64,000 nt of DNA from Candidatus Xenobia bacterium (GCA_045863235.1 BTUM01000019.1:1-64000); one strand, 5' to 3'; shown: positions 9,805-50,063, counted from the stretch's first letter. Numbers and translations: made by a program. Notes: generated from the sequence alone by a model not told the origin.

Positions 9805-9806
9805 CC

Positions 9807-29346: not shown

Positions 29347-30279
29347 ATGGCGAGCTTTCTGCTCAAGGAGCTGGCCCGGCGGGTGGAGGGGTCCGTGCTG
29401 GGCGATGGCGAGTTGACCATCACCTCGGTGAGCGGCCTGGAGGGCGTGCAGCCGGGCGGGCTGACTTTCATCGAGGAAGCCGGCCGGCTCGCGGAGGCCG
29501 AAACCAGCGGAGCGGTCGCCGTCATCGCCCCTCCGGATGTAGAGTCGAGCCACCTCGCCGTGCTGCGCACACCCCGACCGCGCGTCGCATTCGCGCGCCT
29601 GTTGGCGCTCTTTCACCCCCGCCCGCCGGTGCACCCGCTCATCCATCCAACCGCCTTCATCCACCCGCAGGCGCGGGTGGCCGCCACCGCCCACATCGGT
29701 CCCTTCTGCTCAGTAGGAGCCGGGTCGGAGGTGGGCGAGGGTGTCGAACTGGTGGCCCGTGTCACCCTGGAAGAGGAAGTCATCCTGGAGAGGGGGGTCT
29801 GGCTGCAAGCCGGGGTGGTCGTCAAGCGGGGCGCGCGGCTTGGCCCGGAATGCTCTCTGTTACCCCACTCGGTGGTGGGTCCGAGGAGCGTTCTGGGCCC
29901 CCGAGTCGAGACGGGCGCTCGGGTCGTCATTGGAGCCGAGGTCAGCATCGGAGAAGGCAGCAAGCTGGATAACCTGGTCCTGGTAGGAGCTGGCTCGAAG
30001 TTGGGCCGCCACGTGCTGATGGTGGGACACAGTATGGTGCTGACCGGCTGCGAACTGGGCGACTACAGTGTCGTGGCCGCCCAGTCGGTGGTTCTGCCGG
30101 GCGTGAAGCTGGGGGCCCAGGTGCAACTCGCGGCTCGCTCCTTTGCCGATCAAGACCTTCCCAAAGCGGGCACCTACTCGGGCGACCCGGCCCAACCTCA
30201 TCGTCAGGAGATGGTCTTCAAGGCCCTTCAGGGGAAGGCTGCCGAGCTCTGGCAGGGCTTAAAAAGGGTCCGCAGGTAA
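29347..30279 (+). CDS. LpxD-like hexapeptide-repeat protein (catalytic His apparently absent)
   Basis: LpxD N-terminal domain (LKELA..G..LTFI..PRVAFA), IHPTA, hexapeptide repeats; LDNLVLVGAG in place of IDNLVQIAHN. Confidence 0.75.
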   Translation: MASFLLKELARRVEGSVLGDGELTITSVSGLEGVQPGGLTFIEEAGRLAEAETSGAVAVIAPPDVESSHLAVLRTPRPRVAFARLLALFHPRPPVHPLIHPTAFIHPQARVAATAHIGPFCSVGAGSEVGEGVELVARVTLEEEVILERGVWLQAGVVVKRGARLGPECSLLPHSVVGPRSVLGPRVETGARVVIGAEVSIGEGSKLDNLVLVGAGSKLGRHVLMVGHSMVLTGCELGDYSVVAAQSVVLPGVKLGAQVQLAARSFADQDLPKAGTYSGDPAQPHRQEMVFKALQGKAAELWQGLKRVRR

Positions 30280-31003
30280 GGGCCAGCAGGATCCAACCCA
30301 GAATCCCCGAGAGCGGATCGCCTGACAGGCCCCAGAACCAGGAGCTGTCCAACCGTCCCGGCGGGTCGACGATCTGGATGAAAACCCAGGTGGTGTGGAC
30401 CCCGATGGCCATCCAGAGTGAGCCGGTTCGTTCGACCAGAAGAGCCAGGAAGATTCCGGCCAGCACCAGAGACACTCCGAAGGCCAGTTTCCACTCGGTT
30501 GTTCCAGGGCGAAACAGATGGAGAACCGCAAAGAAGAGGTTCACGCCCAGATAGGCGGCCGGTCGCCCCCACTCCTCGCGGGCCACCTGGAACAGGTAGC
30601 CGCGGAACACGACCTCCTCGGCGATGGCCATGAGCGGTGCCGCGATCAGCGCCGCCAGAAGGGGGGGATCGGGGGGCGGGGTCCAGCGACCGAAGAGGGT
30701 TAAGATCAACCGCGAACCAACGATCATCCCCGTGCCCAGCAAGATTCCGGTGGTGAACAGGCGCACCCAGCCCGGGCGCATTGCCAGGCTGGCCGAGCCC
30801 GGCCGCGGACCCCAGCGCCGCCAGCTGTAGGAGGTGCTGAAGAGCAGCCAACAGTAAAGGGCGATCAGATAGCCGTCTTTCCAGGCGCGTGGCCCGTGGC
30901 GACTGAGCAAAATGGTGGGCTCGCCCAGAATCAGTCCCGGGATGAGCCAGGCCGCCACCCAGCCAACGGCCAGCAGACCCAGGAAAGCGCCGATCCGTTT
31001 CAA
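30218..31003 (-). CDS. CPBP (CAAX/Abi) family intramembrane metalloprotease
   Basis: EEVVFRG, FAVLH and H-x3 motifs in TM helices. Confidence 0.85.
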   Translation of the reverse strand: MKRIGAFLGLLAVGWVAAWLIPGLILGEPTILLSRHGPRAWKDGYLIALYCWLLFSTSYSWRRWGPRPGSASLAMRPGWVRLFTTGILLGTGMIVGSRLILTLFGRWTPPPDPPLLAALIAAPLMAIAEEVVFRGYLFQVAREEWGRPAAYLGVNLFFAVLHLFRPGTTEWKLAFGVSLVLAGIFLALLVERTGSLWMAIGVHTTWVFIQIVDPPGRLDSSWFWGLSGDPLSGILGWILLALTCGPFLSPARARQPSPEGP

Positions 31004-32157
31004 GGAGGTGGTTGGCCGTGGGCCAGCGATTCTATCCAGGCCGCCATCCGGGCCGCGCCCCCCGGCGGACCCATGCGCTCACGTCCCACCGCGCCGCGCC
31101 GGTGACGCTCCTCAGGGTCGCGCAGCAGCCTGGACAGAGCGGCGACGATGACTTCGGGACGGTCCTCCACCACCTCCACAGCCTCCCCCAAGAGGCCCTT
31201 CTGGCGGAAACGATACCAGCTCATCCTCTTCTCGCCGCCGGGCCCGTAGGCAAGTACCGGCAACCCCTTGCCGGCGGCCTGCTCGTTTGCCGTTCCGGCC
31301 TGGCCCAGCACGAGCTGGCAGTGAGCCAGCACATCTCCCAGGACTCGCCGCACCAATAGCACGGAGGGCAGACCCTCCCGGCACAGCTCGCCCACCATGC
31401 CACGCTCGGTCGGAGAAGCATTCAGCTGCCACCCGGGGGGAACCAGCCGCTCCAATTGAAGACTATCAGCCACGACCACCACGGCCCGCGCCCGGTCGCC
31501 CCCCTGCCAGAGGAGCCCGTAGACGTCGAGCATCCGGGCCAGTTCGGCGTACGCCTCCACCCGGCTGCCCGGGAAGAGAGCTATCCAGGGCAAGTTGCCG
31601 TTGAGGGGCAGATCGATGCCGGTGGGCTCAAGAGCGTCCATCATCGGGTTTCCCACCCAGGCCGCTCGAATGCCCGCTCGACGCAGGTCGGCCGCGGTCG
31701 GCTCGTCGCGGGTCAGCACCCGATCGGCCAGTTGCCGCATAGCCAGTCGCTCGAACCAGGAGTAACGATGGTGGACGACCGACTTGGCGGTGCCGATGAA
31801 GAGGAGTGGTCGCAACCCTGCAAAGGCGTTGAGCAGGGCAAAGACATCTCCCACCACCACGAAGAGCTGGTACTGGCGCCGCACCTGGCGCAAGAAGCGA
31901 AACTGGCGCAAAAGCAGGGTGAGCAGACCACTGCGGAGATCGCGGGTGATGTGACTGAGCGGAGAATCGTTGACCAGCCCCCCGCTGGGCATCGGAGCCT
32001 GGCGCGGTCCAACCAGCGGTAGCACGCCCTGATAAGCGGCTCCCTGACCCACCGTGGGCATGGCCTCAGCCTCGACCCGATTCAGACGCGATCCGATCAA
32101 GCTGGCGATCGCATCCTCGCCGGCGCCGTTGGAGATGAACAGCACCCGGGGGCGCAT
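31000..32157 (-). CDS. Lipid-A-disaccharide synthase-related GT-B protein
   Basis: ISNGAGED, PSGG, VVGD, GTAKS, VGNPMMD, FPGSR..EA, AGTANEQAAGKG, RMGPPG. Confidence 0.8.
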   Translation of the reverse strand: MRPRVLFISNGAGEDAIASLIGSRLNRVEAEAMPTVGQGAAYQGVLPLVGPRQAPMPSGGLVNDSPLSHITRDLRSGLLTLLLRQFRFLRQVRRQYQLFVVVGDVFALLNAFAGLRPLLFIGTAKSVVHHRYSWFERLAMRQLADRVLTRDEPTAADLRRAGIRAAWVGNPMMDALEPTGIDLPLNGNLPWIALFPGSRVEAYAELARMLDVYGLLWQGGDRARAVVVVADSLQLERLVPPGWQLNASPTERGMVGELCREGLPSVLLVRRVLGDVLAHCQLVLGQAGTANEQAAGKGLPVLAYGPGGEKRMSWYRFRQKGLLGEAVEVVEDRPEVIVAALSRLLRDPEERHRRGAVGRERMGPPGGAARMAAWIESLAHGQPPP

Positions 32158-32877
32158 TCAGGCCACCAGGGCTGGGGAGTGTAACCGATACTCCAGTTGC
32201 CCTGACCCCAGACGCAACTCGGCCAAATAACGGCTGTGGCTCCCGGCCTGCACGATGGGTACTCCCCCCACCCGATGAGGCTCTTCCAGCACGGTGTGGC
32301 TGTGGGCGCCTAAAATCAGGTCGACTCGGGGCAGTCGGGGCGCGATCCGGCAGTCCACCTCAAATCCCAGATGGGAAAGGAGCAAGACCAGGTCGCAACG
32401 CGGGCGCATCTCCTCCACCAACTGGGGCAGACAATCCTCGGGCTGAAAGAATCGTAGCCCGAAAAGGCGTTCCCACAGCGAGCCATGGGGATACTGCACC
32501 ACCGTGGCCCCGATCAGCCCCACTTTCAAATCCTCGACCTGAAACTCCAGCACCGATTGCCACAGATCGTGATGGGCGTTTCGCAGGTCGATCAGGTTGG
32601 CGGCCAGCAAAGGAAAACGACGCTGGTCTCGACGCCAGCCCATCACCCGGCGCAGGTAATGGAGTTCGCGATTGCCCATGGCCATGGCGGCGAAGCCCAG
32701 CTCGCGCATCTGATCGAGGACCGGCTCATGACGCCGGTACACAGTGTTGGAGCCGCAGAGGGCATCGCCCCCATCCAGCAGCAGGGTGCGGGCGTCGCGC
32801 GGCTGGCGAGCCAGCAGGTCCAGACTGGCCGTCCGGCCATGCATGTCGTTGGTGTAGAGCAGCCTCAGGTCGGCCAC
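32158..32877 (-). CDS. Calcineurin-like metallophosphoesterase (5'-nucleotidase N-terminal-type domain only)
   Basis: TNDMHG, DGGD, MGNRE, LSHLG, GAHSH, IVQAG; no C-terminal nucleotidase domain and no signal peptide. Confidence 0.85.
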   Translation of the reverse strand: MADLRLLYTNDMHGRTASLDLLARQPRDARTLLLDGGDALCGSNTVYRRHEPVLDQMRELGFAAMAMGNRELHYLRRVMGWRRDQRRFPLLAANLIDLRNAHHDLWQSVLEFQVEDLKVGLIGATVVQYPHGSLWERLFGLRFFQPEDCLPQLVEEMRPRCDLVLLLSHLGFEVDCRIAPRLPRVDLILGAHSHTVLEEPHRVGGVPIVQAGSHSRYLAELRLGSGQLEYRLHSPALVA

Positions 32878-32878
32878 A

Positions 32879-33382
32879 TCAACCCCGGGAGAGCTTTCCG
32901 AGCACCAGGGGGAGTGAGGATCCGAGCAACCAGCCAACGGCCGCGCCCAGAAACGACCCCGTAACTTGATACAGAGCCCAGCAACCGAGCGCCCCGCCGG
33001 CCCAATTCATGACGAAAGCCAGAGGGGAGAGAAAGATGGAGAAGCCCAGCGCCCCCCCCAGAAGTCCTCCCCCCAACCCCGACAGGGCGCCCGCTCCCAG
33101 GTTCAGCAGGCGACTCCCCAATACTGCCCCCTCCCAGGAGGCCAGGGCAAGCCCGGTCAGGGCGGGGGGAGCAGGCGGATTGAGATTGGCGCCGGTCAAG
33201 AAGGCAGCGAGAAACCCGCACAGACCGAATCCCACGATGGAAAGCAAGCGCTGGCCGGGGGTGATGCCGGGAGATCCGGCGGGCTGGTCCTGAACGCCTC
33301 CAATAGGGGCGTCCTCCTGCTCCTGGCCATCCTGTGCCAGTTGGGCTTCGAGCTCCTTGCGCTTGCGTTTCTTCTTGCTCAC
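32879..33382 (-). CDS. Hypothetical Gly-rich membrane protein
   Basis: GTGA-coupled start; charged N-terminus followed by several Gly-rich TM segments. Confidence 0.65.
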   Translation of the reverse strand: MSKKKRKRKELEAQLAQDGQEQEDAPIGGVQDQPAGSPGITPGQRLLSIVGFGLCGFLAAFLTGANLNPPAPPALTGLALASWEGAVLGSRLLNLGAGALSGLGGGLLGGALGFSIFLSPLAFVMNWAGGALGCWALYQVTGSFLGAAVGWLLGSSLPLVLGKLSRG

Positions 33383-33963
33383 AGCACTGTCCCTGTCAAG
33401 CGCAGCTTCCAGAGCAGGATGCTCCAGGCCACGGTCAACCAGGCGAAGGTCGACCACTCAAAACGTAGAGCCGTCTTGAGGCAGAAGGTGCCTTCCCCGC
33501 CGGACCAGCCGGTCAGGCGAGGCAGCAGGGCCGGCACGCTCCGGCAATACTGCTCATAGGTCTCGCCAAACTGCTTGCGCAAGAAGCCCTCTTCCAGCGG
33601 GATGATGGTCGTGTAGATGCCCGTGTGAATGCCAACCGCCGCCAGGAAGACCCAGGGACCCACCGAGCCCATGCCGGCTGTGGCCGCCAGGGCCACCCCG
33701 GCCCCGTTGAGCAGGTTGCCCAGATAGAGGGGATTGCGTAGATAGGAGTACGGCCCGGCGGTGATCAACCGGGGCGCGTCGAGGTACTGCCGGCGAGTGG
33801 GAAGCCCGGTGTAGCCCAGGGCCCACAGCCGGAGAAGCTCGCCCATGAAAGCCAGGCAGGCGCCCAGCATCAGGCCGGTCGGGCTGGGGCGGCTGTAGTA
33901 GAGCACCAGCACGCCGGTGACTCCGGCCAGGGCTCCTCTCCAACGAAACACAAATTCACGCAT
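33379..33963 (-). CDS. Isoprenylcysteine carboxyl methyltransferase/PEMT family membrane methyltransferase (LmtA-like candidate)
   Basis: GELLRLWA, LITAGPYSYLRNPLYLG, EE.FL...FGE.Y..Y...VP motifs. Confidence 0.85.
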   Translation of the reverse strand: MREFVFRWRGALAGVTGVLVLYYSRPSPTGLMLGACLAFMGELLRLWALGYTGLPTRRQYLDAPRLITAGPYSYLRNPLYLGNLLNGAGVALAATAGMGSVGPWVFLAAVGIHTGIYTTIIPLEEGFLRKQFGETYEQYCRSVPALLPRLTGWSGGEGTFCLKTALRFEWSTFAWLTVAWSILLWKLRLTGTVL

Positions 33964-35185
33964 ACTGCTTTGCCAGGGGCAGACCGAGGGTCTCGAGAAT
34001 TTGGTCCGCCAGCCTTTCCCCCGCACCCGGAGCTCCCATCAGAACGCGCAACTCGCGGGAGAGCTGCGCGCGACGCTCGGAATCTCGAGCCAACTCCTCC
34101 AGAACGCTTATCAACGGCTCCAGAGAATCCTGCAAGAGCACCTCGGGAACCAGCTTGCGCCCGGCCCTGAGGTTCGGTTGCGCCACACCGTGGGGAAACC
34201 TCAAATACTCCCTCAGCCGGAGCTGTTCCTTCCAGGCTCCGAGAGGCATCAGGTCGAGCAGCCCCCCCAGGCCTCCGCGCGGGAGCGGAGCGCGAGTCGA
34301 TAGAACCAGCACCATCGGGCATCCTGCGCAGGCGAGCTCAGCCGTATTCGTGCCCGGGATGGTCAGGGCCAGATCGAGCGCTCCCATCGACTGGTGGGGC
34401 CTGCCCTGGGTCAGTGCGATCTCCAGGCCGGCGCGAGTTCTCAGGCTCTTCAGACCGAACTGGCCCGAGCTGCGCTCCAGTCCCAGGTCGATGGGGTGGT
34501 CCAGTGCCTGTTGGGCGGCCGCCAGGCTGACGAAGGGCGAAAGAACCAGCAAGAACTGGAACTCCGGGTGGCTGCTGGTGAGCTTCTCAGCAACGCGCAA
34601 AAAGAGCGGCAGAGCGGCCCGCAGATGGACTGCGCGCGAGCCCGGGAAAAGTCCCAGCACGGGCCGGTCCATTGCCAGGCCCAGCGCCTGGCGCGCACCC
34701 TCCCGACTCTCGGGCAGGGACACACCGTCCACCATCAGGTTGCCCACGCAAACGATGCGCTGAGGGGCTACCCCGCGCGCGACCAGGGGGGCGACCAGCT
34801 CCGGACTGGGCACGGCCACACGCTGGAAAGCGCGGGCCTGACGGCTTGGGCGCACCGAGTAGGCCAGACCGGGCACGCCCCAGAGGTGGGCCAGACGGCC
34901 GGCCTGCCACAACTCTCCGCCCAGGAAGACGACAATGGCCTGCCTGGAAGGCCGGAAACCAGACATCCCCAGCAACAGGCGCAGAGTCTCTCGGGGAGCC
35001 AGGACGCTGGTCAAGCCAGGCAACTGGCCAGCATACTCCATTTCGCGACCGCTGGCATAAGGACAGGGAACCAGGGCCACGTGCAGACGAAGATCGCTCT
35101 GGCGAGCCAGCAGGGCCTGGCTGGTGACGCGCACCCACGAGGAGAGCTCGCCCGGCGAATTCGAGGTCATGATGATGTCGGGCAT
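33956..35185 (-). CDS. LpxB-like GT-B glycosyltransferase
   Basis: SNSPGE, FLGGE, VGNLMVD, FPGSR, TIPGTNTAELA, AQPN....VPE. Confidence 0.8.
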   Translation of the reverse strand: MPDIIMTSNSPGELSSWVRVTSQALLARQSDLRLHVALVPCPYASGREMEYAGQLPGLTSVLAPRETLRLLLGMSGFRPSRQAIVVFLGGELWQAGRLAHLWGVPGLAYSVRPSRQARAFQRVAVPSPELVAPLVARGVAPQRIVCVGNLMVDGVSLPESREGARQALGLAMDRPVLGLFPGSRAVHLRAALPLFLRVAEKLTSSHPEFQFLLVLSPFVSLAAAQQALDHPIDLGLERSSGQFGLKSLRTRAGLEIALTQGRPHQSMGALDLALTIPGTNTAELACAGCPMVLVLSTRAPLPRGGLGGLLDLMPLGAWKEQLRLREYLRFPHGVAQPNLRAGRKLVPEVLLQDSLEPLISVLEELARDSERRAQLSRELRVLMGAPGAGERLADQILETLGLPLAKQYA

Positions 35186-35296: not shown

Positions 35297-35346
35297 ATTG
35301 GCGCGGCGCCCCTACAGTGCTGAGCAGGTCAACGCGCGGGACTGTA
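35297..35346 (+). repeat. REP-like element, partial copy C (contains the lpxB stop codon)
   Basis: aggtcaacgcgcgggactgta is identical to 8552-8572; attggcgcggcg is the reverse complement of 36582-36593. Confidence 0.7.
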
Positions 35347-36492
35347 TCGACTCTGCAGGAGCCCTTCGACGTGGTCAGCCACCCGGCCGATCACTCCTGG
35401 CTCACCCACCGAGGCCCGGGCCCGATCCAGGCACTCCAGCATGCGCTCGCGCTCCGGTCCCTCCTCAAAGAGCCGGATGGCCTCACGGACCAGGTTCTCG
35501 GGGGTGGCCGTGGTCTGCAAGAACTCCGGCATCACGTCCTCGTCGAGCACCAGGTTGACCAGGCCGAAACGGTCCACCCGCATCAGCTTGAGGCGGCGCA
35601 GCAACCGATAGAGGGCCCAGTCGAAAGAGCTGCCTTTATAGAAAACCACGTGGGGAATGCGCAGGAGAGCCGCCTCCAGGCTGGCCGTTCCGCTGGTAAT
35701 CAGGGCCACGCGCGAAGCGGCCAGAGCCTCCCTCGCCTGGCCCTGCAAGACGTGAAGATAGGGCGGCGTGGTGCCCAATTGCCGGGCCAGAAACGGCGCC
35801 AGCCGGGGGGTGGCGCAGGGGATCAGGAACTTCACGTCCGGATAGCGCTGACGCAACAGAGCGGCCGCCTCGAGCAATACCGGAGTCAGATAGCGCAGTT
35901 CCTGGATGCGGCTCCCGGGTAGCAACGCGACATAGCGGCCGGGCTTCAGTCCCAGGGCCTGCTGGGCCTGTTCCAGCGGTCGGGGGGGACCGATGATATC
36001 CACCAGCGGATGGCCGAAAAAGCCAACCTCCAGACCGTTCTTGCGGTACTGCTCGGCATTGAAGCGAAAGGCCGTCACCACGCTGGTAACCCGCTGGTGG
36101 ATCTGGTGAAGTCTCTTTGAGCTGCGGGTCCACTGAGAAGGCGGGAAGTAATACATCGTCCTGATCCCGTGCCGCTGTGCAAACCCCGCCAACCGGTAGT
36201 GGGCGGCCGGACTGTCGATCACGATCAGCAGGTCAGGGCGCACCTCGAGCAGCAGTTTGCGCATCTTCCGGTAGGCAAGCAGCAAGGTGGGGATCAGCCC
36301 GATGGCGGCGCTCGGACCGATCACGCCCCAACCGGTGCTGTCGATGAAAACCTCGACTCCGGCCGCCCTCATGGAGTGTCCTCCCGCACCGAGAATGCGC
36401 ATCTGGGGGTGACGACGCTTCAATTCGGCGGCCAGAGCGGCGGCCTGCAGATCGCCCGAAGGCTCGGCCGTGCTGATGACCAGCGTGCTCAC
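35329..36492 (-). CDS. lpxB: Lipid-A-disaccharide synthase
   Basis: AEPSGDL, IDSP, YYFPPSQW, FGHPL, LLPGSRIQE, SGTASLEAAL, LVNL..PEFLQ; directly after lpxA. Confidence 0.9.
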   Translation of the reverse strand: MSTLVISTAEPSGDLQAAALAAELKRRHPQMRILGAGGHSMRAAGVEVFIDSTGWGVIGPSAAIGLIPTLLLAYRKMRKLLLEVRPDLLIVIDSPAAHYRLAGFAQRHGIRTMYYFPPSQWTRSSKRLHQIHQRVTSVVTAFRFNAEQYRKNGLEVGFFGHPLVDIIGPPRPLEQAQQALGLKPGRYVALLPGSRIQELRYLTPVLLEAAALLRQRYPDVKFLIPCATPRLAPFLARQLGTTPPYLHVLQGQAREALAASRVALITSGTASLEAALLRIPHVVFYKGSSFDWALYRLLRRLKLMRVDRFGLVNLVLDEDVMPEFLQTTATPENLVREAIRLFEEGPERERMLECLDRARASVGEPGVIGRVADHVEGLLQSRYSPAR

Positions 36493-36517
36493 GGGCTTGA
36501 GGAGAAGGTGAGAGTGA

Positions 36518-36623
36518 CCATCCCGCGCCTTGACCCGGGCTGAATTTGCACGCGCGCGACTGGGGACAATCTGTTGAACGACGCCGCGCCAATTCCTGAA
36601 GGGGTCAACGCACGGCGCCTTTA
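36518..36623 (-). repeat. REP/BIME-like element, copy B (two GGTCAA hairpins in opposite orientation plus linker)
   Basis: Matches copy A over 60 nt; second hairpin cgccgcgcc...ggggtcaacgcacggcg. Confidence 0.8.
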
Positions 36624-38445: not shown

Positions 38446-38584
38446 GACTTTGCGCCTCCTTCGTCCTGAGGCCCCGCTCCTCAACGGCGAATCCCTTGCC
38501 ACTCGCGGGAGTGCCCCGCAAGATCTGCTGGTCGAGTATTTCCCAAAACTTCGCCGGATGCCAGGGAGATCCTGTTAAAATCCT

Positions 38585-42636: not shown

Positions 42637-43080
42637 CTACTTCTGGTTCAGCTTGATGAGGATGTCGGTGGTCACATTCTCACCGCTCGTGTACTGCACG
42701 GCGGGCAGATGCATGGTATCGATCACGACCACGTCCAGCCCCCGCTCGCGGGCCACCTGCTCGGAAGCCTGGGTGATGCGCCGGTAGGCGTCTTCGTAAA
42801 ACTTGCTCGAGCGAGCCTGCCACGACTTGGAGGCCCGCTGGATGCGGTCGTTGAGGTCCTTCAGCTTCCGCTTGTCAAACTCTTCCCTGGATTGGGGAAT
42901 GCTGGAGAGAAAGCTCCCCGTCTCCGCTGCCCAACTCAAGTTCATGTCACGAAACTCGGGCATCTCGCTGACCACACGCTCGGTATTGACGACGCCGACC
43001 TTCAGCTTGCGCGGCTCGCCCTGACCGCAACCGACGACCAGCAACACCAGGCTCAAGAGGACGGCTCTGGTCATGCTCAT
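42637..43080 (-). CDS. OmpH/Skp-like lipoprotein
   Basis: Lipobox VVGC; KVGVVN; ASEQVARERGLDVVV; NVTTDI. Confidence 0.8.
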   Translation of the reverse strand: MSMTRAVLLSLVLLVVGCGQGEPRKLKVGVVNTERVVSEMPEFRDMNLSWAAETGSFLSSIPQSREEFDKRKLKDLNDRIQRASKSWQARSSKFYEDAYRRITQASEQVARERGLDVVVIDTMHLPAVQYTSGENVTTDILIKLNQK

Positions 43081-43565
43081 TTCTTCTTCTCGGGCGCCTT
43101 CGGCGGAGTTTGCTGGAGTTTGAGCTCCAGGTCCTGGGTGATGCTCACCGCGCCATACTCCACGGTGGGATAGCCAGGCGTGTCCACCAACACGAGGTCG
43201 ATGCCCTTATCCTTGCTGACCGCCTCGGCCGCCTCGCTGATGTGCGCGAAACGGGTCTTGAGGAACTCCTGAGTCTTGGTGAACCACTTCTTGTCCAGCT
43301 CGGCATTCATCTGGCGGAACTTGCTCAGATCGGTCTGGCTAAGATTGCTCGGGCCTCCGGCCTCGCGAATGCGGGCGTTGATCTTCTTCTGCAACTCGAC
43401 CCGGGCCTTGGCATAGTCGCTGGCCATCTTCTGATAATCCGGGTCGCTCTGCACCAGCGAAACGGTGTTCACAGTTCCGGTCGTCAATTTGCCCGTGGGG
43501 CTGCAACCGACCAGAGCCAACAGCCCCAGCGCCACCCCCAACAATGCCGTGCGTTTCATAAACAT
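43077..43565 (-). CDS. OmpH/Skp-like lipoprotein
   Basis: Lipobox LVGC; AAEAVSKDKGIDLVL; YGAVSITQD. Confidence 0.8.
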   Translation of the reverse strand: MFMKRTALLGVALGLLALVGCSPTGKLTTGTVNTVSLVQSDPDYQKMASDYAKARVELQKKINARIREAGGPSNLSQTDLSKFRQMNAELDKKWFTKTQEFLKTRFAHISEAAEAVSKDKGIDLVLVDTPGYPTVEYGAVSITQDLELKLQQTPPKAPEKKK

Positions 43566-43569
43566 CCTC

Positions 43570-44994
43570 CTAGGGCGATTCGGGCCTGGCCTTGGTCTTG
43601 ATAGCGACCATCGCGTAGTCAGTCAGATCGACACAGCCACGATTCTCAACGTAGGTGCCGATCACAATGTCGATCTTCTGCTTCTTGGCCACTTCGCCGA
43701 TGTCGCCCTTGAGGTCCGCCACCATCTTGTCGAAAAGCTCGTTACGCTGTGTCTGGAGCTTGTCACGCTGCTCCTCGAGCACCTTGATCTTCTCCCTGGT
43801 GGCTGCCGAGAGTCCCTCTCGGGCATTGGCCTGCACGGCCTTCTTCAGCTCTTCTTGCTGCTTCTCAATGCGGGCCTTCAGCTCTTCCGACTTTGTCTTG
43901 AGCCGGGCCACGGCCACACCCTGCTCGGCTTCCATCTTCTGGCGAGCGGCAGCCGCTTCGGCCTCCATCTTGGAGCGCAGCTCATCTTGCTTCTTGGCGA
44001 TCATCGCCTTGATCTCCGGTGTCAAGGTGGGCTGCTTGGGGCGAGGGGCCGGGGGAGGGGCCCCCGCGCTGGCAGGCAGAGCCCCGATCTGGCCCTCGAC
44101 CTCGCGATTGACTTTGTCGATGGCGGCTTTGGTTTCGGCCGCCTGGCGGGCCTCGGAATCGGCCCGGAAGGTCTTGAAGCTGCCCTCGAGCTCGGCACGC
44201 TTGGCGTCCTTGAGCCGCTCTTCCTCGTCCGAGATGGCCTCGAGCTGGGCCTGCAGGTCGGCCTGCTCGGCCTCGTCCTTGGCCACCTGAACTTTCAGCT
44301 GAAGGTTCAGCTTCTCTTGCTGATGGGTCTTCATGATCTCGTCTTCGTACGCGGCGATCTCCGAGTCGATGCGGGCTCGCTCGGCCTCGCGCTGCTCGCG
44401 GTGCACTTTCTCGACCTCGAGCTTGATGGCTTGAACCTTGCGCTCGCGCAGGAGCAAGAGGTTCTTGCGCTGCTCGCCGAGAGGCGCCGGCATGTTGACT
44501 GGCTCGGCCGGCGCGGCCGCTTCAGGAGCGTTCTTCTTGATGTAGGCTTCGAGCTCTTTCTGCATCTCGGCCGAGCCCTTGGCTGCCTCAGCATCGAGCC
44601 GGGCCTTCATCTGATCGGAGAGCCCTGCCATCTCGGCCGCGATGGCCGCCTGCTCGGCCTCCATCTCGGACTGCGCTCTCATGAGCTCTTTCTTGTACTT
44701 CTCCTGGGCGGCTCTCAGAATGTCATCGCGGTCCTGCATAGGCGCGAACTCGATCTCTTGCTTGAGCCCGGCCAGTTGCTCGTCGAGTTGGGTCAAGCGC
44801 TCGTAGTCAGGATGAGCCTTGAGCAGGTTGGAATAGTCCACCACGCCCAGCGTGCCGCCCAGGGCCTCACGGACCGCAGCCTGCTGATCTTGAGCCCCCA
44901 CCGGAGTCGCCAGAAAGGCGCCCGAGGCCAGGACCGAAACCAGCGCCAATCCACTCCCCCAGCGCAACCATGCGGATCGCAAAGTGTTGTGCAT
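43570..44994 (-). CDS. Giant OmpH/Skp-like protein with ~380-aa coiled-coil insert
   Basis: Signal peptide; GVVDYSNLLKAHP at the N-end and VAKKQKIDIV..DLTD at the C-end; heptad-rich middle with two Pro hinges. Confidence 0.75.
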   Translation of the reverse strand: MHNTLRSAWLRWGSGLALVSVLASGAFLATPVGAQDQQAAVREALGGTLGVVDYSNLLKAHPDYERLTQLDEQLAGLKQEIEFAPMQDRDDILRAAQEKYKKELMRAQSEMEAEQAAIAAEMAGLSDQMKARLDAEAAKGSAEMQKELEAYIKKNAPEAAAPAEPVNMPAPLGEQRKNLLLLRERKVQAIKLEVEKVHREQREAERARIDSEIAAYEDEIMKTHQQEKLNLQLKVQVAKDEAEQADLQAQLEAISDEEERLKDAKRAELEGSFKTFRADSEARQAAETKAAIDKVNREVEGQIGALPASAGAPPPAPRPKQPTLTPEIKAMIAKKQDELRSKMEAEAAAARQKMEAEQGVAVARLKTKSEELKARIEKQQEELKKAVQANAREGLSAATREKIKVLEEQRDKLQTQRNELFDKMVADLKGDIGEVAKKQKIDIVIGTYVENRGCVDLTDYAMVAIKTKARPESP

Positions 44995-45007
44995 GACCTT
45001 GCCCTCC

Positions 45008-45940
45008 TTACGGACTGCCGGGAGCTTTGGTGTTGGCGGCCGGAGTGCCCTTGCTGCCAGTCTTCTTCAGGAAGGTATCCACCACTTCGTTGGTGAGGTT
45101 TCGCCCTCCATACATGACGTGCACTTTGTCGAGCACCAACGAAACGTTGTTGGCCTCCGCCGCCTCGGACACCGACTGATTGACGGCTTGCACGAGGGGG
45201 GCAACCTCGGATTCCTGGCGAGCTTCCATGCGCATCATCAGCTCCTTCTGGAGATTCTCCACCTCTTGCTGACTGCGACCCTGGGCTTTCTTACGGAACT
45301 CCTCGCCCAGCTCATTCTTGAGGGCGGCGAGCTTGAGGTCCACCTCCTGGAAGGCCTTCAGGTTGCGCACGACATCCTGGTCGAAGTAGGCGATTGGCGA
45401 GTCCTTGGTATCATCCTCGGCCGGCAGCTTGAGCTCGGCCTTGGAGGTGAATTGAGACTTGACTTCCTCGGTGATGTCCTCGACCCCATAGACCACGATG
45501 CGCTTATCCAGCACGACCTTGTAATTCTTGTTGCGAGCCACGATGGCGATGGCCGCCTCGGCCCGGGTCTGCAACGGCTGGAGGGTCTTGTTTCGCTCCT
45601 GCTGCAGCTCCAACTCGAACTCGGAGGCCTTTTCACGCACCTTGCGGGCACCCTCCTCGTTACGCGGTTGGGTGGCGGCAAACTCCTCCAGCTTTTTGGT
45701 GTATTCGGAGTTTTTCTTGTCCAGGTGCTCGCGCGCCTTGGTGAAGTCCTCGAGCTGGTAGATGGCGTCCGAGTCGAGCGAGGCTACCTTCTTGACGGGC
45801 GAGCCGACACCGCCGCTCCTGAGCACGAACCAACCGGCGGCGATGGCCACCAGCAGCAGGACGAAGCCTGCGATCAAAGGGATCTTATTGGAGCCTCCGC
45901 CGGACGAGGGGGATGTCATCGTGGTTTCTCCGTCTTGCAT
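45008..45940 (-). CDS. Tandem OmpH/Skp-domain protein with N-terminal TM anchor
   Basis: Two repeats ending VLDK..VVYGVEDIT and VLDK..VMYGGRNLT. Confidence 0.8.
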   Translation of the reverse strand: MQDGETTMTSPSSGGGSNKIPLIAGFVLLLVAIAAGWFVLRSGGVGSPVKKVASLDSDAIYQLEDFTKAREHLDKKNSEYTKKLEEFAATQPRNEEGARKVREKASEFELELQQERNKTLQPLQTRAEAAIAIVARNKNYKVVLDKRIVVYGVEDITEEVKSQFTSKAELKLPAEDDTKDSPIAYFDQDVVRNLKAFQEVDLKLAALKNELGEEFRKKAQGRSQQEVENLQKELMMRMEARQESEVAPLVQAVNQSVSEAAEANNVSLVLDKVHVMYGGRNLTNEVVDTFLKKTGSKGTPAANTKAPGSP

Positions 45941-46142: not shown

Positions 46143-48695
46143 TCAGAACGACTGGCCGATGCCCAGACTGGCCCGACCGCCGTCTTCTCCGAAGGCGTAG
46201 TCGATGCGGATGACGCCCAGCCCGAGGCTGGGGAACACGATGCGAAGACCGGCTCCGACGTCAGCTTTGAGGGCGCCCGAGGTGACCCCCGGAGTCCAGG
46301 CATTGCCGGCGTCAGCAAACACAGCCCCACGCAAGAACTTGATGCGGCCGATTCCGAAGCGATACTCGGCGTTCAGCACCACGAAGCGGGTTCCGAAGAA
46401 GGCGTTCTCACGATAGCCACGCAACGTGTCCGTGCCACCCGCGAAGAAGAACTCCGAAACCGGGGCGTTCCCGTTCAGCATTCCGGCCCAGGCCCGCATG
46501 GCCAGGGTCGAGTTGCTACCGAACGGAATGTAGGAGCGGCCCTCGGCGACCAGCTTCGTGTAGCTGAAATCCCCACCCAGACCGGCAAAGGCGACCGAGC
46601 CGTTGGCAAAGTTGCCCACGGTCGGATTGAAAACATCGTCGCGCGTGTCGTAGAGGGCCGAGACGGCCAGGCTGTTCAGATCGCCATTTCCAATGCCCAC
46701 GGGCACGAACAGCGATTCTGGATCCTGGGTAATCTCGATGGTCTCGCGGCGGAAGGTCAAGAAGCCGCGGAAGTCGTCGGTAAAGGGATGTCCGTAGGTG
46801 ATCGTGCCGCCATAGCGGCGATCATCATACAGGGCGAACTGATCGGGATTCCCGCCGATGACCGGCTGGCGTAGCCCGGAAACTTCGTTGAGGAACAAGG
46901 AGATGCCGATGGAGTCCTGGTTGTCGTTGATGGCCGGATCGAAGTAGCTCAGGCCCAGAGCGCTGATGTTGGCACCGCGCTGCCACTGGACGCTGACCGA
47001 CTTGCCCTGGCCGAAGAGGTTGCGGTCGGAGAAAGAGATGGCACCGGTGATGCCCGGTCGCACCGCGCCCGAGCCGCCACCGGCATAACCCACGCCGATG
47101 GTGGCCAGGCCCGTCTTCTGCTCTTCCACCGCCAGAACGAGCACCACCTTGCCCGGCTCGGTGCCAGGCTCGGGCTCGATATTGACTTTCTTGAAGTAAC
47201 CGAGGTTGTTGAGACGCTCGAGGTCCTTTTGAATCTTGCGCCGCTGCAAGACCTCACCGGGCTTGGTGCGCAGATTCCTGGTGATGGTGTCGGTTTCGGT
47301 CTTGGTGTTGCCCTCGACCCGAATCTCTTCCACCACAGCCTCGAGCACCTTGAGGGTCACCGCGCCCTGATCGGGATCAAGCCGCGGACGGATGGTATCC
47401 AGAATGTAGTCGTTCTTTTCGTACAACTCGGCAACGCGAGCACTGTCTTCTTTGATGGTCTTCTGGTTGAAGAGCTCGCCGACTCGGGTCTGAACCAACG
47501 AGCGAACCTCTTGCTCCGGAAAAACGGTCACACCCTCGATGCTCACGGATTGAACCAGCATGCCATCCTTGATAGTGAGGGCGAGGGTTCCCTCGCCCCA
47601 CTTCAAGTCGACCACGTGAGTCGGGGTAAGCAGGTAGCCGAGGTCCTCGTTATAGTACTTATTGATGTTCTGAATGTCGGCGTGCAGAGTGCGAGTATTC
47701 AGAATCTTGCCAGCCCTGGTCTCCATCAACTCGACGATCTTTTCGGTGGGAACCACCTGGTTACCACTGATCACCACCTGGTTGACCATCGGATTCTCGA
47801 GCACCCGGAAGATCAGTCGCACTCCTCCGGGAGCGCCACGCGTATCCAGGCGCACGTCGGTGAAGTAACCCAGATCGAAGATAGCCTGCATGTCACGACG
47901 CAGCCGCGGCTCGAGCACCGGATCACCGATGCGGGTCGAGACCACCTGCAACACCTCTTCCGTGGGAACCTGAGCGTTGCCCTCGATCTCGATATTGACC
48001 ACGCGGGGCGCGGCGGACTCGGGTGGCTGCTCCTCTCCCCCGGGGGTCGGGGTCTCCTCCGAGCCCGGAGCCACGGCGGCCGAATCCACTGGCAGAATGT
48101 CGCGACCGAGCGGAGCCTGAGCGTAACGGGCCGACGAGACGATCATCTCGCGATTGGCCCCCAGGGTAAAAATGACCGAAACCGTGTCGCCCGCCTTCAA
48201 TCCTTCGGCCAACTGGCTGTCGGGCGAAACCAGGAAGATCATGTCCCTCTCGCTGCCATCGGCAGCCTTGCCGCGCACACTGAGTTTTTCGTCTTCGAGC
48301 AACAGGACCTGACCGCTGAAACGATAGGTGCCCTCGGGCAGACTGTCGGCAGCGGGGCTCTCCGCGGGAGGCGTTCCTTCGCCGGCCGGCGCAGCACCCT
48401 CACCTTCAGTCGGCTGAGGCGGAGCCGCGCCATCGCCCTCTGGCGGCTGAGGGGGCGCCCCGCCGGGCTGGGGAGGAACGGCGCCCTCACCCTCCGCAGG
48501 CTGGGGAACCGGGGCCTCAGGCGAGGCCCCCTCCTCCCCGTCGGCCGCGGGCTGAGCCGGAACCGCCTCTTCTTCGGCGGCTACCACCCCGGACTCGGAC
48601 GCTCCGCCACCCGGCAACTCCTGAGCCAACACCCCCACGGGCAAGCTCATAAAGAGCATGGCAACCACCAGGGCGAGGCTAATTTTCTTCTTCAT
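46143..48695 (-). CDS. bamA: Omp85/BamA outer-membrane assembly factor with long N-terminal extension
   Basis: Signal peptide, three POTRA-like repeats (LGYF), GGTDTLRGY, FADAGNAW, IRIDYA, terminal GQSF. Confidence 0.92.
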   Translation of the reverse strand: MKKKISLALVVAMLFMSLPVGVLAQELPGGGASESGVVAAEEEAVPAQPAADGEEGASPEAPVPQPAEGEGAVPPQPGGAPPQPPEGDGAAPPQPTEGEGAAPAGEGTPPAESPAADSLPEGTYRFSGQVLLLEDEKLSVRGKAADGSERDMIFLVSPDSQLAEGLKAGDTVSVIFTLGANREMIVSSARYAQAPLGRDILPVDSAAVAPGSEETPTPGGEEQPPESAAPRVVNIEIEGNAQVPTEEVLQVVSTRIGDPVLEPRLRRDMQAIFDLGYFTDVRLDTRGAPGGVRLIFRVLENPMVNQVVISGNQVVPTEKIVELMETRAGKILNTRTLHADIQNINKYYNEDLGYLLTPTHVVDLKWGEGTLALTIKDGMLVQSVSIEGVTVFPEQEVRSLVQTRVGELFNQKTIKEDSARVAELYEKNDYILDTIRPRLDPDQGAVTLKVLEAVVEEIRVEGNTKTETDTITRNLRTKPGEVLQRRKIQKDLERLNNLGYFKKVNIEPEPGTEPGKVVLVLAVEEQKTGLATIGVGYAGGGSGAVRPGITGAISFSDRNLFGQGKSVSVQWQRGANISALGLSYFDPAINDNQDSIGISLFLNEVSGLRQPVIGGNPDQFALYDDRRYGGTITYGHPFTDDFRGFLTFRRETIEITQDPESLFVPVGIGNGDLNSLAVSALYDTRDDVFNPTVGNFANGSVAFAGLGGDFSYTKLVAEGRSYIPFGSNSTLAMRAWAGMLNGNAPVSEFFFAGGTDTLRGYRENAFFGTRFVVLNAEYRFGIGRIKFLRGAVFADAGNAWTPGVTSGALKADVGAGLRIVFPSLGLGVIRIDYAFGEDGGRASLGIGQSF

Positions 48696-48813: not shown

Positions 48814-48842
48814 ATTGTATGCATGGCTCGGTCCGGGCGCAA
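48814..48842 (-). promoter_or_regulatory. sigma70-type promoter for bamA
   Basis: Minus strand TTGCGC-17 nt-TACAAT; palindrome TGAAA-CC-TTTCA at 48792-48803 just downstream. Confidence 0.55.
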
Positions 48843-48974
48843 CCCCAATTTTCTGTTCGCCCTCTCGGCTGACATTGAATTTCTTTCCACATCAAAAGAG
48901 AACTCCCTCCTGATGGGAAAACTCGGACACGAACCGGCGGAGGGGGTGGCCGGATCTTGTGCGAAAGGGCTCCA

Positions 48975-50063
48975 ATGAGGCGGTTTGGAGCCCTTCTTCT
49001 GGTGCTGACCTGGGTCGCGCAGGCCCAAGAGCCGCCCGGCTCGGTGCGTTGGAGCTACAAGCTGCCCTTCCCGGTGCGCAGCCTGGCCGTGAGCGAGCAG
49101 GGCGTGGCCCTGGTCGGCTCGGACTTTGGCAATTACCTGCACGCAGTGGACGTATTACCTGGAACCTTTCTCTGGAAGAGAGACCTGGCCGGCTCCATCT
49201 GGAGCCCGGCAGTCGTCACTCAGGAAGCGGCCTATCTGGTCCCCAACGCGGCGGCCCTGATTGCGCTTCGTATCGAAACCGGGGACGTACTGTTCTGGTT
49301 GGGACCCCGCTTCCCATCAGGGGACCGTCCGCCCTGGCAGAACAAAGCCCCTCCCGCCGTGGGCCCTAACCGGATCTGGCTGGTCTCCCTCAACGGCACG
49401 CTCTGCAAGCTTGACGCCACCGGGAAACCGCTGGGACAGACAGAGCTGCAAGGCCTGAACCAGACGGACCAGTTTTGGAGTCGCCCGGCCCTGGCAGGCG
49501 ACTCGCTGTTCATCGGCTCCATCCGTGGTCGCCTTCACCGGGTGGCCAGCGAGACCTTGCGACGCAAGGAGACGATTGAGCTGGGAGAGGATATCCGAGC
49601 CGATGTAATCGCTCGCGACGACCGGCTCTATGTTTCTACCGTCAACGGCTCACTGTATGCCTTTCGAGCCGACCCGGAGCGCACCGTGCAACTCTGGAAA
49701 CTTTCTCTACGCAGCCGAGCTCCTGGCGGCAGCACCGGGCGTTCACCCGTCATTCCACTGGTAATGGAGGACCGCTTGCTGGTTGCCAGCCGCACCGCCG
49801 CCTATTGCCTGGACCGGCGAACCGGCGGCATCCTCTGGAGAAGGGAGGTCGAATCCGGAATCGCCGCCCCCCTGACCCTGGTCAAAGACCGGGTGCAACT
49901 GGTCACCGGTCAGGGAGAACTGGTCTCATTGGCACTCGCCACCGGACAGATGCTGGGAGGAGTCCCCCTGCGTGGCATCCCCACGGCCGGCCCTCTGGCC
50001 TGGGGAGAAGTCGTGCTGGTAGGTTTCTCGGATGGGATGCTCCAGGCGGTAAGCCCGCCCTGA
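48975..50063 (+). CDS. PQQ-like beta-propeller protein (BamB-like)
   Basis: Signal peptide without lipobox; repeated 'LHAVD..G..LW', 'LDRRTGGILW' blades; divergent from bamA. Confidence 0.8.
   Translation: MRRFGALLLVLTWVAQAQEPPGSVRWSYKLPFPVRSLAVSEQGVALVGSDFGNYLHAVDVLPGTFLWKRDLAGSIWSPAVVTQEAAYLVPNAAALIALRIETGDVLFWLGPRFPSGDRPPWQNKAPPAVGPNRIWLVSLNGTLCKLDATGKPLGQTELQGLNQTDQFWSRPALAGDSLFIGSIRGRLHRVASETLRRKETIELGEDIRADVIARDDRLYVSTVNGSLYAFRADPERTVQLWKLSLRSRAPGGSTGRSPVIPLVMEDRLLVASRTAAYCLDRRTGGILWRREVESGIAAPLTLVKDRVQLVTGQGELVSLALATGQMLGGVPLRGIPTAGPLAWGEVVLVGFSDGMLQAVSPP

Follow-up and report, generated by a model that had tools for sequence, protein, structure and literature searches.

An outer-membrane and lipid A operon of the Vulcanimicrobiota with candidate non-orthologous replacements for missing Raetz pathway enzymes

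Gene content and organization of the locus

The window, a stretch of 64,000 nucleotides from Candidatus Xenobia bacterium (GCA_045863235.1 BTUM01000019.1:1-64000), belongs to a Vulcanimicrobiota (Eremiobacterota) genome that is 97.6% complete (G000). All genes that an earlier note had listed for an outer-membrane biogenesis cluster were found in the order it gave, running on the minus strand from 48695 to 30218 (profile scores are given with their cut-offs):

48957..50063, plus: PQQ beta-propeller, BamB-like (PF13360, 88 bits), divergent from bamA
46143..48695, minus: bamA (TIGR03303, 340.6; cut-off 297)
42637..45940, minus: four Skp/OmpH genes (45008-45940, 43570-44994, 43077-43565 and 42637-43080; PF03938)
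41686..42609, minus: lpxD1 (NF002060, 220; cut-off 207), catalytic His kept in the alignment
39881..41689, minus: 602-aa exported protein with an N-terminal hydrophobic segment and Atlas look-alikes; no Pfam/NCBIfam match
38985..39884, minus: lpxC (TIGR00325, 229.6; cut-off 187), one copy in the genome
38585..39064, minus: fabZ (NF000582, 134.6; cut-off 113)
37474..38502, minus: Gfo/Idh/MocA oxidoreductase, probable GnnA (UDP-GlcNAc 3-dehydrogenase; NF040723, 258 bits; cut-off 450)
36621..37445, minus: lpxA (TIGR01852, 322.9; cut-off 231)
35329..36492, minus: lpxB, lipid A disaccharide synthase (TIGR00215, 241; cut-off 190)
33956..35185, minus: LpxB-like GT-B glycosyltransferase with an NSPGE motif, candidate core-initiating transferase replacing WaaA
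33379..33963, minus: PEMT/ICMT-family membrane methyltransferase, distant LmtA relative (PF04191, 41.5)
32879..33457, minus: small membrane protein of no family (9/41 loci, 3 families)
32158..32877, minus: stand-alone metallophosphoesterase of the UshA/5'-nucleotidase type with a GNRE motif, candidate UDP-2,3-diacylglucosamine hydrolase
31000..32157, minus: TIGR03492 lipid-A-disaccharide synthase-related GT-B (259.3; cut-off 219.2)
30218..31003, minus: CPBP/Rce1-like intramembrane protease (PF02517, 63.5; 4/41 loci), local addition
29347..30279, plus: lpxD2 (PF04613, 45.9), convergent with the operon

The translational coupling proposed earlier holds from the first skp gene to lpxC and across the phosphoesterase, TIGR03492 and CPBP genes, with gaps of -4 to 27 nt, but the junctions bamA-skp1 (202 nt), lpxA-lpxB (128 nt) and lpxB-lpxB-like (134 nt) are uncoupled. 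The Skp/OmpH genes score 72, 25.5, 27.4 and 41 bits against a cut-off of 32.4, so two fall below it. LpxA, LpxC, LpxD and LpxB each score above a curated cut-off, and 3-hydroxy fatty acids and an outer membrane covered by LPS have been reported for a cultured representative of the phylum (PMC9758169).

Judged by its domains and alignments, LpxD is represented in the host's class by two copies, one catalytic, the other His-less and uridine-binding. The operonic lpxD1 has no PF04613 match (i.e. its N-terminal uridine-binding domain is missing), while lpxD2 keeps this domain and is missing one loop and the catalytic His, which is absent from 24/24 genomes of the same class and present in 2/2 outgroup genomes. 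The second lpxD-like gene that had been noted beside the operon is thus there, but without its catalytic residue.

A comparison of 41 loci, some of them incomplete, separates a conserved core from local additions. The 602-aa exported protein is encoded in 18 of the 41 and occurs in Armatimonadota too. The small membrane protein (confined to near relatives of the host), the CPBP protease and the propeller (adjoining the cluster in 3/41 loci) are local additions. The last scores 79.1 against the BamB profile TIGR03300, far under the cut-off of 285.2, a correction to the former BamB-like label, and it probably stands outside the lipid A system. The proposal that the accessory genes fill and extend the Raetz pathway is partly supported: two findings that would have spoken against it, canonical enzymes elsewhere in the genome and accessory genes lacking synteny in relatives, did not turn up. 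This accessory core (three genes) very probably acts in LPS synthesis.

Missing textbook enzymes

The earlier note recognised no lpxH, lpxI, lpxK or waaA in the window, an absence that HMM searches extend to the whole genome. Profile searches with positive controls gave no match to PF06230, PF02606, PF04413, TIGR01854 or PF02611 and, for KdsA, matches below the cut-off only, so that LpxH, LpxI, LpxK, WaaA, KdsA and Cdh are all unrecognised in this 97.6% complete genome. The late acyltransferase LpxL likewise had no match when a single Armatimonadota sequence was used as query. LpxH, LpxI, LpxK and WaaA are missing from the phylum samples too, the exception being one 9%-contaminated bin: LpxI was found in 0/60 and LpxH in 0/40 phylum genomes, WaaA and KdsA in 1/40 each (both on a single contig of that bin), and LpxK gave three weak matches among 131 genomes. 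In the sister phylum, identical HMMs give high scores for WaaA, LpxK and KdsA. The canonical Kdo2-lipid A (Raetz) pathway was rejected for the host and its phylum, as LpxK, WaaA and Kdo synthesis are lacking in both. A lipid A with no 4'-phosphate and extra glycosylation, as had been suggested, is well supported by the gene content.

The GNRE phosphoesterase

The phosphoesterase gene probably starts with GTG at 32877 and encodes a single domain of ~240 aa, with no 5_nucleotid_C domain, signal peptide, hydrophobic signal segment or GNH motif. Its AlphaFold2 model (pLDDT 95.9) resembles 5'-nucleotidases (Z 27 over 226 aligned residues, with 2z1a) far more than LpxH (Z 11.2 over 159; 5b49), and its sequence matches E. 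coli UshA (E 3e-27), an enzyme that hydrolyses UDP-sugars and CDP-alcohols (PMC10454023). The fold and metal site are those of the UshA/5'-nucleotidase N-terminal domain; unlike UshA, it has neither the C-terminal substrate-binding domain nor a signal segment, and an Arg replaces the His of the motif. The metal ligands and motif (D7, H9, D34, N65, R66, H165, H188 and H190) are invariant in 37/37 phosphoesterases, as is G64-N65-R66-E67; GNRE occurs in 67/67 short representatives, whereas the 83 long relatives have GNH[ED], apart from P0258, a fusion protein, and two that show additional motif matches. Arg at this site is described as particular to LpxH, with His usual elsewhere, and its mutation as causing a 7000-fold loss (PMC6286764). 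The enzyme thus shares with LpxH the dimetal ligands and the Arg after Gly-Asn, but it belongs to the UshA/5'-nucleotidase clade, has no score over the cut-off of the LpxH profile TIGR01854, and its model contains no LpxH-type three-helix lipid-binding cap. An identity with LpxG, which has a GNHD motif and an N-terminal helix (PMC4807358), was ruled out by GNRE in place of GNHD and by the lack of an N-terminal hydrophobic segment.

The gene is present in 112/131 phylum genomes (E<=1e-35), and in 108 of these 112 a TIGR03492 gene lies <=500 nt downstream. In one clade (families f15, f20 and f21), 13/13 loci, chosen via the phosphoesterase or TIGR03492 and not via lpxB, have the order lpxA-lpxB-mpp-TIGR03492-Wzy_C-lptC-lptB (mpp being the phosphoesterase), which places it directly after lpxB. 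In Armatimonadota, which possess lpxB, waaA and lpxK, it stands in the order kdsD-kdsC-mpp-GT-C (upstream cluster in 62/80 loci, downstream gene in 59/80; the genomes were selected for having the phosphoesterase and relatives are not independent). There it lies beside lpxB in 0/80 loci, many of them incomplete; LpxI was found in 1/40 genomes and LpxH above the cut-off in 0/40. Its place directly before a glycosyltransferase gene in both phyla is consistent with a function coupled to the glycosyltransferase. LpxI and a GNRE gene occur together in one genome (G165, a record labelled Verrucomicrobiae). The host genome encodes 17 further metallophosphoesterases, 14 of them with GNH, which leaves room for an LpxG-type enzyme. 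On residues and gene order, we somewhat favour the phosphoesterase as an LpxH analogue and as the foremost candidate for a fourth enzyme that hydrolyses UDP-diacylglucosamine.

Two LpxB paralogues

Both glycosyltransferases keep the UDP-binding PGSR and GT..E residues of LpxB. The LpxB-like protein aligns with WaaA over its full length, G-E upon G-E (hhalign 77%, E 2e-5), while TIGR03492 has no significant likeness to WaaA (0.3%). A fold search with the former was not discriminating (Z 24.4 for an epimerase, 18.2 for WaaA and 15.9 for domain-swapped LpxB). WaaA and LpxB share with the paralogues the GT-B fold, and LpxB its UDP-binding residues; in contrast to WaaA, the LpxB-like protein has no PF04413 match and the host has no CMP-Kdo supply or Kdo synthesis genes; the paralogues' donors are probably UDP-sugars. 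In relatives, the LpxB-like protein is fused to LpxB (G010 and G028) or to the methyltransferase, and a second LpxB-like paralogue adjoins heptose-kinase, nucleotidyltransferase and GT9 genes. Genes for MsbA and the Lpt proteins recur as neighbours of both paralogues.

TIGR03492 is found in 130/131 Vulcanimicrobiota and 1/40 Armatimonadota, WaaA in 38/40 Armatimonadota and 1/40 Vulcanimicrobiota; one genome (G141) has waaA plus both paralogues. The two paralogues are probable replacements of WaaA and LpxK, with TIGR03492 a candidate second lipid A glycosyltransferase for the 4' position or the first core sugar; that both glycosylate lipid A directly we hold to be an even chance. Deinococcus radiodurans, taken as a control, has TIGR03492 above the cut-off and LpxC and LpxB below theirs: a lipid A-free organism that nonetheless encodes this protein, which counts against a lipid A role.

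Backbone and methyl group

A Gfo/Idh/MocA dehydrogenase lies in the lpx cluster of 24/41 loci, and a DegT gene lies inside it in 6/40 genomes, directly upstream of gnnA in three (G045, G047 and G071). This resembles the GnnA/GnnB system of GlcN3N lipid A, likewise with a Gfo/Idh/MocA gene before lpxA, but the host has no GnnB next to gnnA: its best DegT is 42% identical to the in-cluster DegT and sits behind msbA and wecB on C8. The diamino backbone predicted earlier is therefore plausible from the in-cluster DegT genes although the host has no close orthologue, and we consider it likely here.

The methyltransferase scores far under the cut-off for LmtA, the Leptospira 1-phosphate methyltransferase (TIGR04571, 55.3; cut-off 325), but is lipid A-linked: a PEMT-family gene is tied to lpxB in two phyla, following it in 7/19 loci of the Armatimonadota search. 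Of the claimed methylated 1-phosphate, the link to lipid A stands; the 1-phosphate is one among several possible targets, and its choice is tentative. Both GnnA and the methyltransferase have a link to lipid A but are limited to part of the phylum, and the f15/f20/f21 clusters contain no gnnA, LpxB-like or methyltransferase gene.

Proposed pathway and alternatives

We read the locus as the outer-membrane and lipid A operon of the phylum, making a Kdo-free lipid A without 4'-phosphate via non-orthologous replacements (probability about 0.55). GnnA and a DegT protein encoded elsewhere would form UDP-GlcNAc3N, to be acylated by LpxA, LpxC and LpxD, the last perhaps as an oligomer in which the products of lpxD1 and lpxD2 are combined. 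The GNRE phosphoesterase, a putative cytoplasmic dimetal pyrophosphatase derived from the UshA UDP-sugar hydrolase domain, would then split UDP-2,3-diacylglucosamine into lipid X and UMP, and LpxB would produce the disaccharide 1-phosphate. The two paralogues may use UDP-sugars as donors to glycosylate the 6' and 4' hydroxyls, the textbook sites of WaaA and LpxK, the LpxB-like protein being the better WaaA analogue and TIGR03492 the better candidate for the 4' or second sugar. The methyltransferase would cap an anionic group (the 1-phosphate or a uronic carboxyl), and MsbA and Lpt, encoded elsewhere in the genome, would export the product.

The phosphoesterase might instead be a partner of the glycosyltransferase, dephosphorylating lipid A or degrading released UDP for sugar addition, with lipid X coming from an unrecognised enzyme or LpxB using a phosphate-free acceptor, perhaps as in cyanobacteria, whose lipid A is reported to lack phosphate (PMC4515613). 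Its position directly upstream of TIGR03492 in 108/112 genomes, the persistence of the pair after leaving the lpx cluster (G049, G055 and G060), two natural fusions (P0258 and P0442), the Armatimonadota GT-C neighbour and the missing LpxH cap all speak for such a partnership. We consider it unlikely, though, as TIGR03492 occurs without the phosphoesterase in some loci (such as L305, L325, L327 and L322, the last with a true LpxI before lpxB-lpxB-like-msbA-TIGR03492-GT2-lptB-lptF and no phosphoesterase gene), and the phosphoesterase without TIGR03492 in 39/40 Armatimonadota; the two partners are of unrelated enzyme classes, whereas both phyla alike require lipid X, and the His-to-Arg change matches LpxH.

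The paralogues could also be alternative disaccharide synthases, or transferases for the core or other glycolipids, leaving a plain tetra-acyl disaccharide 1-phosphate that GT2, GT4 or GT9 enzymes later glycosylate. LpxB is the closest characterised relative of the LpxB-like protein (E 8e-21; 98.7%), and the fusions of the two, the D. radiodurans TIGR03492 and the GT2 genes recurring next to both paralogues agree with this; it is nevertheless improbable, given a full-score LpxB always beside them, the alternation of TIGR03492 with WaaA between the sister phyla and the recurring msbA/lptB neighbours. Least probable is a typical Terrabacteria outer-membrane cluster that carries hitch-hiking genes, in which diverged or LpxG-type canonical enzymes elsewhere make a conventional lipid A. 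The three local genes, the 14 GNH-type metallophosphoesterases and the capacity of HMMs to miss divergent members would accord with it, but the same HMMs score highly in the sister phylum, and the accessory genes keep their synteny across 13-17 families and fuse with one another.

Related systems are known. Opiyo et al. (2010, PMC3087551) described a four-enzyme pathway of LpxA, C, D and B for Cyanobacteria and Dictyoglomi, and the host agrees with it in its lpxD-lpxC-fabZ-lpxA-lpxB cluster, in having these four enzymes and in missing LpxH/LpxI, LpxK and WaaA; it differs in that the candidates for replacement share an operon with lpxB, and GnnA and the methyltransferase are added. TIGR03492 scores above the cut-off in S. 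elongatus, and the look-alikes of the LpxB-like protein are cyanobacterial. The diderm Firmicutes cluster (Antunes et al. 2016, PMC5007114) has the bamA-skp-lpxD-lpxC-fabZ-lpxA-lpxB backbone in common with the host, but it includes lpxI, lpxK, waaA and kdsABCD, which the Vulcanimicrobiota lack. The type of pathway is already known; what is new are candidates for its missing steps.

It is a bolder and rather doubtful proposition that the GNRE enzyme is a fourth hydrolase, evolved independently within the UshA family to the active-site Arg of LpxH and serving two whole phyla, and that the paralogues are at the same time the cytoplasmic UDP-sugar transferases of Kdo-free, 4'-glycosylated lipid A, adding sugars at the sites where LpxK adds phosphate and WaaA adds Kdo, cyanobacteria included. 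If true, the enzymes behind such lipid A, the cyanobacterial one too, would be accounted for. The Vulcanimicrobiota, a little-studied phylum, would in any case assemble their lipid A in the absence of three textbook enzymes, and the conserved genes that may stand in for these are strong, readily testable candidates for the missing steps.

The gene cluster and its surroundings

The gene order claimed in the earlier note was recovered from the ORF list and family scans. The minus-strand series spans 48695 to 30218 and begins with bamA, four skp genes, lpxD, a gene for a 602-aa protein, lpxC, fabZ, a Gfo/Idh/MocA oxidoreductase, lpxA, lpxB and an LpxB-like gene; genes for a PEMT-family methyltransferase, for a small membrane protein and for a metallophosphoesterase (mpp) come next, and a TIGR03492 gene and a CPBP gene close it. 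Many junctions overlap or abut (with three exceptions), GC content is uniform over the window, and each end is flanked by a plus-strand gene, one for a PQQ propeller, the other a second lpxD. Homologues named as Eremiobacterota, Xenobia or Vulcanimicrobiota place the host in the phylum Vulcanimicrobiota (Eremiobacterota), probably in class Xenobia. The genes discussed here are:

29347..30279, +, second, convergent LpxD copy (lpxD2)
31000..32157, -, GT-B glycosyltransferase of family TIGR03492
32158..32877, -, stand-alone metallophosphoesterase with a GNRE motif (mpp)
33379..33963, -, PEMT-family methyltransferase
33956..35185, -, LpxB-like GT-B glycosyltransferase
37474..38502, -, Gfo/Idh/MocA oxidoreductase (probable GnnA)
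39881..41689, -, 602-aa exported protein
41686..42609, -, operon LpxD copy (lpxD1)
48957..50063, +, PQQ propeller protein

The 602-aa exported protein, encoded between lpxD and lpxC, matched no family; it has a 29% paralogue on contig C2 of the host genome (G000) and look-alikes in Armatimonadota. Elsewhere in the window, a Ser/Thr kinase–beta-propeller fusion (27282-29213) is divergent from lpxD2, and a gap-pgk-tpiA operon (7319-10583) is followed by a solute-binding protein (11065-12876) with a repeated, Ser/Pro-rich C-terminal tail.

Conservation across the phylum

Synteny was compared over 41 lpxB-containing loci from 19 families, whose counts are indicative only, because loci were selected around LpxB-like or mpp/TIGR03492 matches and some end at contig borders. 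The accessory genes proved syntenic, as the earlier note had expected: mpp is present in 36 of the 41 loci and TIGR03492 in 35, followed by the oxidoreductase (24), methyltransferase (24), LpxB-like gene (23), 602-aa protein (18), membrane protein (9), CPBP gene (4) and propeller (3). Genome-wide, TIGR03492 occurs in 130/131 genomes and mpp in 112/131 at E<=1e-35, a threshold missing at least G010 and G058, where mpp scores lower; in 108 of the 112 mpp-bearing genomes, at most 500 nt separate TIGR03492 from an mpp upstream of it. These three tallies include one unpublished genome (G125), on which none of them rests. Families f15, f20 and f21 have a reduced cluster (bamA-skp-lpxD-lpxC-fabZ-lpxA-lpxB-mpp-TIGR03492-Wzy_C-lptC-lptB), with the order lpxB-mpp-TIGR03492 in all 13 of their loci, and this shrinkage therefore leaves mpp and TIGR03492 as the invariant additions. 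Gene fusions link the same players to one another: LpxB to LpxB-like (G010, G028), LpxB-like to the methyltransferase (G014, G045, G048 and G054; 9/120 among the proteins listed), and mpp to TIGR03492 (proteins P0258 and P0442).

Absence of canonical enzymes

LpxI, LpxK, WaaA, LpxH and Cdh all went unmatched in the host genome (8.36 Mb, 97.6% complete) and KdsA matched below cut-off only, while control genomes gave the expected matches in these searches. The absence of lpxH, lpxI, lpxK and waaA that the earlier note had seen in the window thus holds for the whole genome in HMM searches. Across the phylum, LpxI was found in 0/60 genomes and LpxH in 0/40; the single WaaA and the single KdsA match (1/40 each) share contig C203 of G043, a bin that is 9% contaminated. 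Three weak LpxK matches among 131 genomes, one nominally over cut-off, were judged to be another protein of about 450 aa, with a 55% orthologue in the host genome and no NCBIfam family; a genuine Armatimonadota LpxK scores 293 bits. A JGI label of 'tetraacyldisaccharide 4'-kinase' on P0431 was discounted, as this protein scores as TIGR03492 only.

These absences match the pathway of four enzymes known from Cyanobacteria and Dictyoglomi, where LPS is reported without Kdo and phosphate (PMC3087551). In terms of gene content, the earlier interpretation largely stands; the pathway type itself was already known. Lipid A of marine Synechococcus is described with galacturonic acid on the 4' position and a chain of glucose on the 6' position (PMC4515613). 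For a cultured member of the phylum, an outer membrane covered by LPS is reported, with 16.5% iso-14:0-3OH and 11% iso-13:0-3OH, in a text that does not mention lipid A (PMC9758169).

The phosphoesterase

The mpp product is a lone N-terminal catalytic domain of the UshA/5'-nucleotidase family, in which both the C-terminal domain and a hydrophobic signal segment are absent. None of its metal ligands varies, and where the family has GNH, GNRE is found in 37/37 aligned orthologues and in 119/120 homologues listed. A profile search gave GNRE in 67/67 short representatives and GNH[ED] in the 83 long relatives, apart from P0258, which is the fusion, and two with additional motif matches; among the 18 metallophosphoesterases of the host genome, mpp is the sole GNR enzyme. 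The discovery of LpxG, like that of LpxI, reportedly came from the kind of search for missing pathway enzymes made here. LpxI was discovered as an unknown gene in the lpxA–lpxB operon of bacteria without lpxH, and Arg at the GNR position, usually His in the superfamily, is described as particular to LpxH, where it binds the phosphate of lipid X and accounts for a 7000-fold difference in activity (PMC6286764). UshA substrates include UDP-sugars and CDP-alcohols (PMC10454023), which share their bond type with UDP-2,3-diacylglucosamine, the substrate proposed for mpp.

The reading of mpp as an LpxH analogue is favoured by some further observations and opposed by others. The predicted structure (pLDDT 95.9) has no LpxH cap, which counts against the analogy, and offers just one short helix, aromatic and conserved, near residues 124-139. 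The family extends to Armatimonadota, where, in the best 80 of 266 loci, GNR occurs in 80/80 (partly built in by the search pattern), yet mpp adjoins lpxB in 0/80; it lies behind kdsD-kdsC in 62/80 and before a GT-C membrane protein in 59/80. It could instead serve the adjoining glycosyltransferase, a rival favoured by its fixed position directly before such a gene. In favour of the LpxH analogy, forty mpp-bearing Armatimonadota genomes hold WaaA in 38 cases, LpxI in one and LpxH over cut-off in none, and their lpx clusters contain lpxB, msbA, waaA and lpxK without a hydrolase. A metagenome locus (L322) is the converse, with LpxI before lpxB, both LpxB paralogues, msbA and lpt genes, and no mpp within the locus. 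Against the LpxH analogy, a genome labelled Verrucomicrobiae (G165) holds both LpxI and mpp. An LpxG-type hydrolase, with motif GNHD (PMC4807358), is also possible among the 14 GNH proteins of the host genome.

Side observations concern the Armatimonadota loci themselves. The operon kdsD-kdsC-GNRE phosphoesterase-GT-C membrane protein is conserved (L103-L182), and its GT-C enzyme may be an LPS modifier. The locus in G165 (L158) is of this kdsC-phosphoesterase-GT-C type, in a genome that also carries lpxI, and may reflect transfer or mis-assembly. The lpx cluster (L216-L235) reads tamB-sigma factor-bamA-skp-lpxD-lpxC-fabZ-lpxA-lpxB-[methyltransferase]-msbA-DUF374-waaA-lpxK-lpxL-GT9; DUF374 keeps a constant place between msbA and waaA, and LpxH/I are absent.

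Two LpxB paralogues

LpxB-like and TIGR03492 are homologous to each other (99.8%) and both keep the UDP-binding residues of LpxB (PGSR, GT..E). LpxB-like, matched in 61/61 relatives, is closest to LpxB and also aligns with an Armatimonadota WaaA (345 columns, hhalign 77%), placing NSPGE on WaaA's SVGE; by motif position, not superposition, its Glu is a candidate counterpart of E31, the WaaA catalytic base (PMC5785501, Table 3). TIGR03492 and WaaA alternate between the sister phyla, at 130/131 and 1/40 here versus 1/40 and 38/40 in Armatimonadota, and outside the phylum TIGR03492 recurs with LpxB-like, msbA and GT2 genes (e.g. L296, L298, L302, L305, L322). With two enzymes missing, two transferases to spare and two positions glycosylated in the lipid A of Synechococcus, the simplest reading is that LpxB-like and TIGR03492 would replace the missing enzymes. 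This replacement is weakened by the D. radiodurans control, which has TIGR03492 while LpxC and LpxB are absent, by the additional presence of waaA in G141, and by a fold search with LpxB-like that returned generic, uninformative GT-B matches only.

Many of the 61 relatives carry a second LpxB-like paralogue adjoining heptose-kinase-like, nucleotidyltransferase, GT9 and GT2 genes; such loci, with a PfkB kinase, occur in most families (L070-L077, L064, L066, L060, L067). In the host genome, heptose genes, GT9 and this paralogue were not found with the queries used. A quick tree sets the operon paralogue apart from the heptose-locus one with moderate support only. In genus g23 (L083, L098 and other genomes), the TIGR03492 match is confined to model positions 1-263, so the C-terminal half has diverged. 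In family f13 (L057 in G057, also G061, G065 and G068), TIGR03492 occurs as two genes in tandem; G057 moreover has a further full-length lpxD, placed between lpxB and LpxB-like.

A split LpxD

In 9/9 aligned same-class loci, the operon LpxD (41686-42609, -) retains the catalytic His and has no N-terminal uridine-binding domain; LpxD is full-length in other classes and Armatimonadota. In 24/24 same-class genomes, the convergent copy (29347-30279, +) retains the uridine-binding domain and is missing both the His and a loop of 19 residues, a loss seen in 0/2 outgroups. Because the LpxD acceptor site is described as combining the N-terminal domain of one subunit with the beta-helix of the next (PMC6286764), this pattern suggests that the two copies form an obligate mixed oligomer, which, if true, would be an unusual case for an acyltransferase.

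Oxidoreductase, aminotransferase and methyltransferase

The oxidoreductase best matches UDP-GlcNAc 3-dehydrogenase (258 bits, below cut-off). A DegT gene lies inside the lpx cluster in 6/40 genomes, directly before the oxidoreductase in three, resembling the GnnA/GnnB pair described for GlcN3N synthesis (PMC8036547). The host genome lacks an orthologue of this in-cluster DegT; its best DegT, 42% identical to the in-cluster protein and conserved at 60-66% in G010 and G030, is the best GnnB candidate by sequence. This gene follows an msbA orthologue and wecB (contig C8, 105415-109453); lptC-like, lptB and lptF/G genes lie on C1 (59173-61907). The methyltransferase is not an LmtA member. It follows lpxB in 7/19 loci of the Armatimonadota search and precedes lpxI-lpxB in L322, and a link to lipid A is therefore likely.

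Novelty and implications

The gap that this cluster addresses is the completion of lipid A by bacteria that have LpxA, C, D and B alone; it supplies three specific candidate genes for the three missing steps. In the mostly open-access main texts searched, no paper was found that names TIGR03492 or analyses the phylum's lipid A pathway. The candidate enzymes are undescribed in the literature searched, including passages of PMC5007114, PMC4072686, PMC13721041 and PMC8871954; phylogenomic supplementary tables could bear on novelty. If true, the proposal would add a fourth route to lipid X, give TIGR03492 a function, explain Kdo-free lipid A in Terrabacteria and bear on the appearance of the outer membrane in early diderms.
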